A stretch of 64,000 nucleotides of DNA, from NCBI RefSeq assembly GCF_024700885.2, contig NZ_CP117016.1, one strand, 5' to 3'. The position numbers are program-made. Positions 15,001-21,000 of the stretch are shown in pieces (position 1 is the stretch's first letter; each line of letters starts with the position of its first letter). Source of the stretch: Escherichia coli. Lineage in GTDB: Bacteria; Pseudomonadota; Gammaproteobacteria; Enterobacterales; Enterobacteriaceae.

Positions 15001-18000
15001 GCTGCCGGAGTTGCATATGTTGCGATGAAGCCAATCGTTGAAAACCTTGGAATGAGCTGGTCAACGCAGCAAACAAAACTCATGAAGCAGATTAGCAAAT
15101 TCAACTGTGTTCATATGAACATGGTTGCCGCTGATGGGAAGCTTCGTAAGCTACTCTGCCTTCCTTTGAAGAAGTTAAATGGATGGCTGTTCAGCATCAA
15201 CCCTGAGAAAGTTCGTGCTGACATCCGCGATAAACTGATTCAGTACCAGGAAGAATGCTTTACTGTGCTGCATGACTACTGGACAAAGGGAAAGGCAGAA
15301 AATGCACGTAAGAAAACATCTGTTGATGACAGGACTCCGCTTCGTGATGCTGTAAATATGCTGGTCAGCAAAAAGCATCTAATGTACCCAGAAGCTTATG
15401 CAATGATTCATCAGCGTTTCAATGTGGAAAGTATTGAAGAGCTTGATGCATCTCAGATACCGCAAGCCGTAGAGTACATCCACAGGGTAGTACTTGAAGG
15501 CGAGTTAATCGGCAAACAAGAGAAGAAAGCAAACGAGCTTTCTGCAAAAGAAGCAAACAGCCTTGTATGGTTATGGGATTATGCCAACCGCTCACAGGCA
15601 TTATTCCGCGAACTGTATCTGGCGCTAAAACAAATTCAATCGAACTATTCCGGCAGATGCTACGACTACGGTCATGAATTCTCGTATGTTATCGGAATGG
15701 CGAGAGACGTTTTAATAAACCACACACGAGATGTTGATATTAATGAGCCAGACGGACCAACGAATCTTTCCGCATGGATGAGACTTAAGAATAAAGAATT
15801 ACCTCCTTCAGTACATAACTACTGACAGATAACCAACGCAACGACCTAGCTTCGGCTGGGTTTTTTTATGCCCAAAATTCACCGTAGCCATGCTGCGGCG
15901 ATTCCTTGTATTTGGAGCAAATTAAATGACAGATATTATAAATAGGAATTGTTATTTAATAATGTTTGAAAATAAAAATCATGGACGATAGGAATAAAGG
16001 TATTACTTGTTTTTATTTTTGTAAGTGACGCATTAAGCGCATAAATAATATGCCTGTTGATCAAGATTCTTGAGTATTGTAAAATAATCGTTTTGTTCAT
16101 GTTGCATGGTTTTTAAATGAATAGAAGGTTATTTTTCAAAACAATTGCATCGTTGTCTGCAGTCATTCCGTTTTCTTCAATATCTAAATCTTCAAACAGG
16201 ATGACTAATATGCCTGATATAACCCCAAATGTTGTGATAGGTATGCCATCGCAACTCTTCACAATGGCTAGCTCTTTTAAAACCGTAGCAAATGGAAAAA
16301 TTTATATCGGTAAGATTGACACAGATCCGGTAAATCCAGAAAACCAGATTCCAGTATATCTGGAACGAGAAGATGGTACTTATGTTCAGGTGCCACAGCC
16401 AATCGTTATCAATGCTGCTGGATACCCGGTATACAACGGACAGATTTCCAAATTCGTTACCGTGCAAGGCCATTCTATGGCTGTTTACGATGCATATGGT
16501 ACGCAGCAGTTCTATTTTCCGAATGTGCTTAAGTACGATCCTGACCAATTAAGACAACAATTAGAAGACCCGGAAGGTGCTAAAAAATATCATGAATTGC
16601 AGATGTCTCGGTGGCGTGATGACGCTGACCCTCGCGGATGGGGAGCAAAAGGTGATGGCATCACCGATGACACATTATCTTTTCAAGAGTTAGAAAAACA
16701 AATCACAGGAAGGATTGTTGATCTAAGGGGTAATACATATATAACAGATCAAGTTTTTGATGGAAATAAGTATATAAATGGCTATTTTCGCACAGAGAAT
16801 CGATTACTGCCAGATGCTGATTTTACTGAAAAAAGAATACAAACTATAAAAAAGGGGATGTATACAGGTTTCAGACCTTCTACTCCTAATCATGTTAAGT
16901 CAGGGTTGCGACTGGCAACAATTAAAAATACTGTCATACAGGGTGCTGTTCTTGATTATTATGACAGTGTTCTTTATTGCTTGGTAAATGTGAGTGGCAG
17001 CGTTAGTTCTGGTGACGAAGTTAATAAAGTTGTTGCTTATAATTGGTTTGGGAATGAAGAGTTAACTCCTCTTTGGGAGACTAAAGGTAGTAGAGAATTA
17101 GGACATCAATGTCTTGGTTTAACCATAGGGCGCGTTGGTTTTCGTAACACAAGAGGCCAGTTACAGATATGGGGGTTAGCTGGCACAGCTAAAGGAGAGG
17201 ATCGCGCAAAGTATATCACCAGATTCACCCCTACTGATGGTGGTGAAATTGAACCAGAGTTTTTTCTCATATGGGAAGATGGTTACGAGAATCAGGTAAA
17301 TGTTTTATGCACCGACCCTATGAGTCGATGGCTGATTACTACAGCAAAACGTTATGTTGGCCCTGGTGAGAGCCCATCAACACCAGATCAAATTCGCTAT
17401 TATGTAAAAGTATTTGATACCAGCAAATTTATTAACCCGCAGGCGTACAATTACGATTATCGTAATGAAGCAACTTTTGAATTTGAAATTGCCGATTTTG
17501 TGAGGGATATGCAAACAGTTGCGTGTGACGGTACTGCTATTTATTTTTGTCAGGCTGGATCTGCATATTCTTCAACCAGAAAATATTTGCATCAGTACAC
17601 ACTTGATGGTGTTTATCTTGGGGTGCAGCAAATACAGGCAGGTGCAGGAAGAGCCTATGAAATAGCAGATCCAAATGATACCGGAACGCCAGATGTTAGC
17701 AATCTTACATATGAACCAGAAGCAATGTTTTTCCGTATGATTGCAGGTGGGTATGACCTTGTAATGGGGAATACAAATGGCATACCAGATGGTGATAGTG
17801 GGCGAGAAACTACATTTTACACATTAATGCCACAACAGGTAATGCATGTAAAAACAACATCAAGAAATCAGCCTGGTATTATCATTGATTCAACCCATGA
17901 TATTGTCACTAACTCTGGTTTGTTAAGCCTTGGTAAAATTATGCCTGGTGGTGAAGTCATAGAGCAGGCAAACCTTGATGACAAAGGATTCACTGTTTCG

Positions 18001-21000
18001 AGGGCAACAACACAAGCCGCCCGTTATGATGCAAAGAATACGTTACGGAATGTAACTTTTCATGTTAGTGAAAAAGGTGATACCGGTATTTATGACTTTA
18101 CCAATGCTCAATGGATATTTAAATCTCCCTTATCAACATCTTCATATTCGTATATCGGTCAGTCAGCGGAGGTTAATGGCTATATAAGTGCTAATAAAGA
18201 TAATACGTCATCATGTGGGACATCATCTAAACGGTGGACGCAAGTATATGCAACTAATGGGGCAATAAATACTTCAGACCAGACATTGAAAACAAAGCCA
18301 CTGACAGTAGAGCAACTTTCAGAAATCATGGAGGTGGATCAGGATGCAATTCTTGACGCATGGGGTGACGTAAATATTATCGTTTACCAGTGGTTGTCCG
18401 ATATTAAGGCTAAAGGTTCGGATACTGCTCGTTGGCATTTCGGAGCAATTGCACAGCAGGTAAGAGATGCGTTTCTTGCAAAGGGGATAGATGGAACAAG
18501 ATTTGGCTTGCTATGTCATGATAAATGGGATGATGAGTACCAACCTGTAATGGCACAGCGCAAGGTGTCATTTATAGCTAAATCCCCTGAAGGGGAAGAC
18601 ATCGTTCGCGAATACTTTGAAGAATACGATACTGGTGACACGGAACTGGTTGTACATGCTGGTGAGCGTTGGGGATTGCGTCCAGATGAATGTTTGTGGT
18701 TGGAGGCTGCATTCCAGCGAAGAAGGTGTGAACGCATTGAGTCTCGTTTAACAGAGCTTGAATTGATAATTAAAAAAGCAAAAGAGATAGAGTAGATGGA
18801 TAAAACCCCAATTCATCACGCACTTTGCGCTGTGGTCGCACAGGTACTGGTTGGTCTTTTTACCGGAAACTGGGCTTACGGTGCGATAGCCGGTTGTACG
18901 TTCTTCATTGCTCGTGAACACACCCAGGCAGAATATCGCTGGATTGAAATGTTCGGGCATGGCAAGCGGATTAACATGCCGTGGTGGGGCGGTTTTGATC
19001 CGCGTGCATGGGATGTGGCAAGCCTGATGGATTTTTCTTTCCCAATTATCGGATGCTTATTGGTATGGATTCTTGCATCGTAGTTAACACAGAGTTACCT
19101 ATGAGACAAAACTAAGGTACACAAAGCTTTGCACTGGATTGCAAGGCTTTGTTCTTCTCTGGAGTGTGACATGTTTTTATGACAAAAAATTAGCGCAAGA
19201 AGACAAAAAATCACCTTGCGCTAATGCTCTGTTACAGGTCACTAATACTATCTAAGTGGTTGATTCATAGTGACTGGATATGTTGTGTTTTGTAGCATTA
19301 TGTAGTCTATTTTTTAGACCAAAGATATTGTAACACATTGATATTAATGGATTTTAATGTTTCACGTTCAGCTTTTTTATACTAACTTGAGCGAAACGGG
19401 AAGGTAAAAAGACAAAAAGTTGTTTTTAATACCTTTAAGTGATACCAGATGGCATAGCGCCATCTGGCAGAGTGATTAACTAAACATCGCAGTAATCGAG
19501 GCGCTTGCCAGAGAATGGAAATGGACGTTAAACCCGACCATCGCGCCGCTGGCACCTTCATCGACATCAATACGTTCTACATCCAGCGCGTGAACGGTAA
19601 AAATGTAGCGATGGGTTTCGCCTTTCGGCGGCGCTGCACCATCGTACCCGGTTTTACCAAAGTCGGTACGCGTCTGCAAAACGCCGTCTGGCATTGCTAC
19701 CAGACCAGAGCCAAACCCTTGCGGTAATACGCGGGTATCCGCGGGTAAATTAACAACTACCCAGTGCCACCAGCCGGAGCCAGTTGGCGCATCCGGGTCG
19801 TAGCAGGTGACAACAAAACTTTTCGTTCCCACAGGAACATCATCCCACGCCAGATGCGGTGAAATATTATCGCCATCGTAACCCATGCCGTTAAAGACAT
19901 GACGATGCGGCAACTTATCGCCATCGCGCAGATCATTACTGATGAGTTTCATGAACCCTCCTTTCTAGTTTGCAGAAAGTGTAGCCAGAAACCCTCACGC
20001 TGACTTCCCGTTATTGGCAAAAAAATGTTTCATCCTGCACCGCACGATTAACCGCTGCGGTCAGACGCTGCAACTGTTGCGGGAGAATAATATAGGGCGG
20101 CATCAGGTAAATCAGTTTGCCAAAAGGCCGGATCCAGACACCCTGTTCGACAAAGAATTTTTGCAGCGCTGCCATATTCACCGGACGAGTGGTTTCGACC
20201 ACGCCGATTGCCCCCAGTACGCGCACATCGGCAACCATTTCGGCGTCACAGGCGGGGGCAAGTTGCTCGCGTAGCTGCCCTTCAATAGCCGCCACCTGAT
20301 GCTGCCAGTCGCCAGATTCGAGAATCGCCAGGCTGGCGTTTGCTGCTGCGCAGGCCAGCGGATTGCCCATAAAAGTTGGCCCATGCATAAAGCAGCCGGC
20401 TTCGCCGTTACTGATGGTTTCCGCAACCTCGCGCGTGGTGAGCGTGGCGGAAAGGGTCATTGTGCCGCCGGTTAAGGCTTTACCGAGACATAAAATATCC
20501 GGCGCGATTTCTGCATGTTCACAGGCAAACAGTTTGCCGGTACGACCAAATCCGGTGGCGATCTCGTCGGCAATCAGCAAGATACCTTCGCGATCGCACA
20601 TTTTGCGGATTCGTTTTAACCATTCCGGATGGTACATGCGCATCCCGCCTGCGCCCTGGACAATCGGTTCAATGATCACCGCCGCGATTTCATGACGATG
20701 CGCCGCCATCAGGCGGGCAAAGCCCACCATATCGCGCTCATCCCATTCGCCATCCATGCGGCTTTGCGGGGCGGGAGCAAACAAGTTTTCTGGCAGATAG
20801 CCTTTCCACAGGCTGTGCATTGAGTTGTCCGGATCGCACACCGACATCGCGCCAAAGGTATCGCCATGATAACCATTGCGGAAGGTCAGAAAACGCTGGC
20901 GCGCTTCGCCTTTGGCCTGCCAGTACTGCAACGCCATTTTCATCGCCACTTCTACCGCTACGGAGCCGGAGTCCGCGAGAAAAACGCATTCCAGCGGTTG

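Follow-up and report, generated by a model that had tools for sequence, protein, structure and literature searches.

A modular tailspike with a predicted five-bladed beta-propeller core in a P22-like prophage of Escherichia coli

Must the tailspike of a P22-like prophage be built around a beta-helix depolymerase, or can its receptor-binding core be of another fold? The question is raised by a tailspike gene in a stretch of 64,000 nucleotides of Escherichia coli contig NZ_CP117016.1 (assembly GCF_024700885.2), hereafter the window, whose positions are used throughout. Based on sequence profiles, structure prediction and comparisons to related genomes, we propose, with a probability of roughly 0.78, that the product is the receptor-binding tailspike of a P22-like temperate podophage residing at the lambda att site, and that it is built of exchangeable modules, i.e. 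a head-binding domain, a cap, a propeller, a stalk and a chaperone domain. The gene is real, intact and already annotated, and the two ends of its product are ordinary. It specifies 861 residues and a stop codon, and is 100% identical to the gene of isolate MLI114, where the NCBI Prokaryotic Genome Annotation Pipeline (PGAP) has placed the label 'phage tailspike protein' on the same coordinates. Its segments are as follows.

16210-18795, plus strand: tailspike coding sequence (open reading frame call, Shine-Dalgarno sequence, PGAP match, translation)
16210-16548, plus strand: P22 gp9-type head-binding domain, residues 1-113 (PF09008 Head_binding)
16642-16674, plus strand: GAxGDGxTDDT motif, residues 145-155, which lies at the start of the cap domain and at a recombination junction common to this and other P22-like tailspike genes (translation)
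16645-16788, plus strand: N-terminal cap ('endosialidase N-terminal extension'), residues 146-193 (PF12218; predicted local distance difference test score, pLDDT, 80-96)
16906-17823, plus strand: predicted five-bladed beta-propeller, residues ~233-538, the presumed receptor-recognition module (AlphaFold, Foldseek, profiles)
17923-18126, plus strand: small all-beta domain after the propeller, residues ~572-639 (model strands, pLDDT 60-93)
18127-18276, plus strand: stalk segment, residues ~640-689, preceding the cleavage site (the 3GW6 alignment starts at residue 648)
18274-18279, plus strand: predicted autocleavage junction Ser689/Asp690 (3GW6 alignment, conservation)
18277-18792, plus strand: intramolecular chaperone domain of the Peptidase_S74 type, residues 690-861 (PF13884, 3GW6)

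The core is the part that sets this protein apart. Residues about 200-640 have no covering match in Pfam, PHROGs, NCBIfam or the sequences of the PDB; PHROGs families match the tailspike at its ends only, NCBIfam families not at all, and a tblastn search with the 450-residue core against 50,697 phage genomes returned no match. A word-indexed homology search yielded just two core relatives, and an exhaustive HMMER search of 1.84 billion representatives was needed to collect 155 relatives, about 56 of which cover the core at 19-68% identity. Among these 56, 23 match PF21311 ('Phage 5-bladed beta propeller receptor binding platform domain'; best E-value 1.6e-15). A family profile derived from sequence only recovers phi11 Gp45 (E 3e-12), P68 gp17 (8e-12) and 80alpha gp61 (4e-11), and when the family is aligned to Gp45 by a local hmmsearch, the match spans Gp45 residues 160-438, i.e. 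the Gp45 propeller. These family counts, the profile and the hmmsearch are sequence-based and hence independent of any structure model.

The AlphaFold 2 model of residues 125-690 (mean pLDDT 82.7, predicted template modelling score 0.74) leads to the same fold. Twenty strands are arranged as five sets of four between residues ~233 and 538 and are followed by a small beta domain, and a beta-helix is absent. Searched with Foldseek, the modelled core finds the receptor-binding proteins of 80alpha, phi11, NF5 and P68 at E 2e-12 to 3e-11, endosialidases being distant (E about 1e-8, TM 0.24-0.27), and its closest non-phage fold neighbours are mostly carbohydrate-active enzymes. In the structural alignment with Gp45, 330 residues are matched, more than the propeller by itself accounts for. 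As modelled and as judged from its homologues, the core is a five-bladed beta-propeller homologous to the PF21311 platform of phi11 Gp45.

The first-pass annotation, made from the window's sequence, had instead described the core as a right-handed parallel beta-helix polysaccharide depolymerase, signalled by the GAxGDGxTDDT motif. The motif is indeed present, at 16642-16674, i.e. three nucleotides downstream of the 16639-16671 given there, and beta-helix enzymes do carry it in their N-terminal caps: within a 25-residue region around it, the family profile matches endosialidases together with beta-helix proteins, namely polygalacturonase ADPG2 and the tailspikes of phiAB6 and Sf6. Two of the 56 relatives also match a pectate-lyase-like Pfam family. 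Nevertheless, we consider a beta-helix core very improbable, as the model forms five four-stranded blades, the query matches no beta-helix Pfam family (PF12708 and related), no beta-helix appears among the top structural matches of the core, and the homology leads to propeller-type receptor-binding proteins. The first-pass annotation itself had named a lack of structural similarity to beta-helix depolymerases as grounds for giving up this part, and on those grounds it falls. In this protein the motif falls into a match to the PF12218 cap (E 1e-4 to 2e-4), which is shared by 27 of the 56 family members. Since the motif is common to PF12218 caps and beta-helix enzymes, it marks a shared cap rather than a fold, and its reading as a beta-helix signature is not upheld. 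In practical terms, the motif alone does not identify a beta-helix depolymerase. An identity as endosialidase of glycoside hydrolase family 58 (GH58), likewise considered, was rejected, as the sialidase domains PF12217 and PF12195 have no match in the query and residues 198-655 have no similarity to the CUS-3 enzyme.

The family alignment offers a view of what the propeller might do. Positions Q244, G298-H299-Q300, W321, Q435, D440, Y445, E502 and E504 are conserved in at least 90% of the family, and Q244, G298-H299, Q435, D440 and E502-x-E504 recur in Gp45. By the strand order of the model, with blades assigned as in Gp45, where the first strand completes blade 5 (PMC4901313), Q244, H299, Q435, E502 and E504 begin the innermost strands of blades 1, 2, 4 and 5. 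In such an arrangement, these conserved residues would ring one mouth of the central channel. For Gp45, a deep central cavity of the propeller has been proposed to accept N-acetylglucosamine (GlcNAc), although soaking failed (PMC4901313).

The modules flanking the core are readily recognised, and here the first-pass annotation was on firmer ground. Its P22-type head-binding domain is recovered by PF09008 over model positions 1-113 of 113 (E 4e-61) and by the solved tailspikes of Sf6 (7sg7, E 2e-58) and P22 (8tvr, 2xc1, 1lkt), with E-values up to 1e-41. A C-terminal self-cleaving chaperone domain, also claimed there, agrees with a PF13884 Peptidase_S74 match spanning residues 689-755 (E 2e-9) and with the alignment of residues 648-851 to the solved chaperone of the K1F endosialidase, endoNF (3GW6, E 2e-32); weaker matches are to T5 pb1, phi29 gp12 and 7Y5S. 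The junction NTS/DQTLK lies where it had been placed, with D690 beginning at 18277 and 172 residues following, and a second, ten-residue motif named for this domain is found at 18433-18462. AlphaFold models residues 691-861 at pLDDT 87-98 with a terminal helix of 36 residues. Cleavage in this domain class proceeds through a Ser-Lys dyad five residues apart, with an oxyanion-stabilising Arg (PMC3742443). In the alignment, Ser689 falls on endoNF position 911 (Ala in the 3GW6 chain) and Lys694 on the Lys five residues on, and in 35 domain-bearing proteins the only invariant columns are S689, K694, G745 and R824. Homology thus strongly indicates self-cleavage after Ser689, which is a prediction for this protein. 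The preceding stalk, residues 640-689, aligns with the end of the endoNF stalk, matches PF12219 End_tail_spike weakly (E 0.14-0.23) and is modelled at low pLDDT as a monomer; it probably forms an intertwined trimeric beta-structure. We note that PDB entry 9vvr_A, a solved 'tail spike protein' of 843 residues in 18 chains, has linker, cap and chaperone domain in common with this protein, and that its deposited sequence extends to the end of the chaperone domain.

Assembly would then proceed as follows. The chaperone domains of three chains would associate and drive folding of the stalk, upon which Ser689, activated by Lys694 and with Arg824 assisting, would cut the chain after its own position, leaving a mature spike of 689 residues. 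Through residues 1-113 the trimer would be anchored in the tail hub, whose genes (gp4, gp10 and needle) lie upstream.

How the modules came together can be traced in other genomes. By megablast, the whole gene is found at no less than 99.5% identity in 13 of 5426 complete E. coli genomes, and some 460 other genomes match its first 413-466 nucleotides only, which places a recombination junction at the GAxGDGxTDDT motif. The GC content at third codon positions is 0.27-0.29 over residues 121-689 versus 0.37 (head-binding part) and 0.38 (chaperone domain) at the two ends, and so delimits the swapped module; total GC, 0.40-0.41 throughout the gene, does not. The suspicion of a swapped receptor-binding module in the first-pass annotation is thereby supported, both by the point at which similarity to E. 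coli P22-like tailspikes ends and by this drop. The two core homologues nearest in sequence (68% and 41% identity) lie in myovirus-type baseplate gene clusters on metagenome contigs and have different N- and C-termini. At a larger scale, the tailspike and a short neighbouring gene travel as a cassette bounded by a hairpin at each edge.

15843-15870, plus strand: terminator-like hairpin and T-run 3' of the antirepressor gene, bordering the shared cassette on its left (cassette start 15809; terminator scan)
18796-19083, plus strand: hydrophobic 95-residue open reading frame (ORF) that abuts the tailspike stop codon (TAG-ATG)
19121-19152, plus strand: terminator-like hairpin bordering the shared cassette on its right, identity to H1827/12 ending at 19152 (terminator scan)
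19371-19385, plus strand: lambda att core GCTTTTTTATACTAA, the right end of the prophage (attR; exact match, 0.03 expected by chance)

This cassette, 15809-19152, is 99.1% identical in H1827/12. Across the carriers it occupies four integration sites, namely the lambda att site (MLI114 and A3), argW beside intS (in a degraded prophage of H1827/12), a position adjoining dacD (E100341) and one adjoining torT (SW070919), and one identical protein, WP_032229949.1, is present at three of the four. Positions 15492-15938 of the window are 96% identical to CUS-3 (positions 1067-1513 of its locus, L002), covering the end of the ant gene and the annotated 'bsq1 boundary sequence'; conserved spacers such as bsq1 may provide the homology for recombination of tailspike cassettes.

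The degraded surroundings in H1827/12, where a DNA transfer gene is truncated and IS elements are present by intS/argW, together with the rarity of the gene, raise the alternative that it belongs to a decaying prophage remnant making no working spike. We regard this as improbable, since the virion gene set is whole in the window and in MLI114, with no pseudogene flags, the ORF is full-length in 13 of 13 genomes and at all four sites, and the catalytic Ser, Lys and Arg as well as every family-conserved propeller residue are intact. In the window, as in the identical MLI114 locus, the genes upstream encode terminase, portal, scaffold, P22-type coat, gp4, gp10, needle and DNA transfer proteins, i.e. 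the P22-type tail hub genes (gp4-family, gp10 and tail needle knob) are encoded together with the PF09008 head-binding domain. Between the DNA transfer genes and the tailspike, the last late/structural gene of this P22-like prophage, lie a PIN-domain gene pair and then the immI region with Arc-family genes and the antirepressor.

Which receptor the spike addresses is a separate matter. A specificity unlike that of P22, HK620 and Sf6, as the first-pass annotation expected, is in line with the lack of similarity to those tailspikes past the N-terminal part. The O-antigen gene clusters of the carriers are O15 in MLI114, O120 in A3 and A26, O7 in H1827/12, E100341, AST19, AST205 and EC0026B, and, in SW070919, an O16 cluster interrupted by IS1. 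O7 is enriched among the carriers (5 of 9 isolates versus 97 of 5426 genomes), a figure confounded by clonality; the cassette reached the O7 carriers via two different insertion sites. Given four different clusters and this clonality, the receptor cannot be assigned from lysogen serotype, and such an assignment was rejected; papers on the carrier strains give no serotypes. In a survey, occurrence of the same receptor-binding protein in several serogroups was read as evidence for a receptor other than the O-antigen (PMC10408124). In the O15 cluster of MLI114, ISAs1 copies lie between galF and wzx (L005, 28235-30468), and in the O16 cluster of SW070919 rfbA is truncated by IS1 elements (L020, 25083-28285), so both hosts may make an altered O-antigen or none.

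In function, we propose that the propeller would recognise a sugar of a cell-surface polysaccharide in the central cavity ringed by Q244, H299, Q435, D440, E502 and E504. A short-tailed virion has to traverse O-antigen or capsule, and, to our knowledge, all characterised P22-like tailspikes (P22, Sf6, HK620 and CUS-3) are enzymes. Together with the conserved His, Asp, Glu and Gln residues, which form a single asymmetric set, this makes us lean slightly towards the cavity being an active site that would also cleave or modify the glycan, by analogy with those spikes, rather than a pure lectin site. Retention of this set at about 20% identity across distant hosts, from Staphylococcus to E. coli, fits better with catalysis or metal binding than with variable ligand contacts, and the carbohydrate-active enzymes among the fold neighbours point the same way.

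The competing view, a purely lectin-like module as assumed for phi11 Gp45, which would attach reversibly to a sugar and have no depolymerase activity, is a serious possibility that we hold to be somewhat the less probable. Binding of GlcNAc on wall teichoic acid is the role described for its sole characterised homologues, and no enzymatic activity has been reported for Gp45-type proteins (PMC4901313, PMC7048315). Occurrence of an identical protein in O120, O7 and broken-O16 lysogens also fits a receptor less specific than one O-unit, and neither glycoside hydrolase, lyase nor esterase families are matched.

Several considerations weigh against our proposal as a whole. The query itself stays below the Pfam threshold for PF21311, membership in which rests on homologues, the profile search and the predicted structure. 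Clustering of the conserved residues at the cavity is deduced from strand order in the model, and these residues could be structural or metal-binding rather than catalytic; the nearest characterised relatives, Gp45 and similar proteins, share them and are known as binders only. No sequence match to any glycoside hydrolase family was obtained, in Pfam for the query and its relatives and in NCBIfam for the query. Furthermore, the stalk is poorly modelled as a monomer, and the four O-antigen gene clusters among the carriers leave lysogen serotype without information on the receptor.

A more far-reaching idea takes the conserved central cavity of the family (Gln, His, Gln, Asp, Glu-x-Glu) to be an active site: PF21311-type propellers, phi11 Gp45 included, might be an unrecognised class of glycan-processing enzymes common to phages of Gram-positive and Gram-negative hosts. 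We deem this unlikely. In that case, the E. coli site might act on a sugar common to many O-units, e.g. a WecA-initiated N-acetylhexosamine, which would explain one identical spike in several O-serogroups.

At its 5' end the gene required a decision on the start codon, as the longest ORF over the locus spans 16117-18795.

16198-16201, plus strand: Shine-Dalgarno sequence AGGA (direct sequence read)
16057-16085, plus strand: weak sigma-70-like promoter match TTGATC-17-TAAAAT, 5' of the tailspike gene

We place the start at ATG 16210, because AGGA lies 8 nucleotides upstream, the Sf6 and P22 tailspike alignments begin exactly at this Met, and PGAP uses the same coordinates in MLI114. ATG 16117 was rejected, having no Shine-Dalgarno sequence, and for the same reason, and since the homologues start at 16210, the 31-codon in-frame extension 16117-16209 (plus strand) is probably not translated. 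We note that this extension resembles a twin-arginine signal (RRxFFK and a hydrophobic stretch), and that some database entries, of 892 residues, begin with it. Promoter-like matches in the region do not exceed in number the shuffled expectation.

Downstream, the 95-residue ORF adjoins the tailspike at all four integration sites. Its PHROGs match is to phrog_1443 only (unknown function), and Pfam and NCBIfam have no match. Its 90% cluster comprises 1603 sequences ('Ybl63') versus 147 for this tailspike, and therefore it accompanies many tailspike types; it occupies the position where P22 and CUS-3 have receptor-modifying genes (gtr and neuO, respectively). Directly beyond the att core lie ybhB-bioA, and the window prophage thus pairs a P22-type virion module with lambda-type integration. 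In E. coli A3, ybhB and bioA are separated by an InsQ/TnpB-family RNA-guided endonuclease gene (L021, 7352-8482), just outside the prophage end; this gene is absent from the window. On the other side, the PIN-domain gene (12831-13379, minus strand) overlaps a gene for a 239-residue protein of unknown function (13370-14089, minus strand). The pair, 12831-14089 on the minus strand, sits between the DNA transfer genes and immI, where P22 has sieA, and may act as a toxin-antitoxin or exclusion module; a PADLOC search of the pair had no match.

Among known systems, the closest in overall plan is CUS-3, an E. coli K1 prophage (siaK1, CP000711), in which the tailspike gene is likewise the last late gene, after ant and preceded by bsq1. 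Its endosialidase tailspike is 69% identical over residues 1-197, i.e. head-binding domain, linker and cap, and its chaperone domain is 35% identical over 656-851 with the same Ser-Asp junction. In between, CUS-3 carries the six-bladed sialidase propeller of GH58, into which a beta-barrel is inserted, and a long stalk, whereas residues 198-655 here lack similarity to it and are predicted to hold a five-bladed propeller of the PF21311 type. The tailspikes of P22, Sf6 and HK620 share the head-binding domain (E 1e-41 to 2e-58) and the role in the virion, but their receptor-binding parts are built as right-handed beta-helices that carry endoglycosidase sites, a detachable chaperone is lacking, and similarity ends at about residue 120.

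The propeller has its counterparts in the staphylococcal receptor-binding proteins phi11 Gp45 (5EFV), 80alpha gp61 (6V8I), P68 gp17 (6IAB) and NF5 gp17 (9M7X). They match in profile (E 3e-12 to 4e-11), have the Q, GH, Q...D and ExE residues in common, carry a beta domain after the propeller and are trimeric phage receptor-binding proteins. In contrast to the E. coli tailspike, they possess an N-terminal coiled-coil stem and two C-terminal tower domains and no chaperone domain, are about 13-15% identical to the query, are attached to siphovirus baseplates or, in P68, to the tail, and have GlcNAc on the wall teichoic acid of Gram-positive hosts as their ligand. The chaperone domain is shared with the K1F endosialidase (3GW6), the L-shaped fibre pb1 of T5 (4UW8) and phi29 gp12 (3GUD), all of the Peptidase_S74 type and with the Ser-Lys pair aligned in the case of 3GW6; there, however, it is joined to a different receptor-binding module, and cleavage of the present protein is predicted from sequence. 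Among predicted viral structures, Foldseek ranks Q9FZW3 of Bacillus phage GA-1, a neck appendage protein, first (E 4e-22 over 529 columns), in spite of 16% identity, a Gram-positive host, a different N-terminal attachment and a receptor-binding fold that is itself predicted. GA-1 gp12 is said, in work of Schwarzer et al. from 2007, to end in an endosialidase-type chaperone domain, and may thus share the combination of propeller and chaperone.

Beta-propeller receptor-binding proteins are frequent in predictions and functionally obscure (PMC12491483), and in the literature we found no earlier description of a five-bladed propeller module in a P22-like phage. With a complete prophage, known lysogens and the possibility of precise mutants, the locus lends itself well to work in E. 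coli. Textbooks use P22-like tailspikes as the model of a beta-helix endoglycosidase, to which CUS-3 with its six-bladed sialidase is the one exception known to us; a five-bladed propeller would be the third solution, in the form of a module that passes between phages of Gram-positive and Gram-negative hosts and from one tail type to another, from a podovirus tailspike here to myovirus-type baseplates in its closest relatives.

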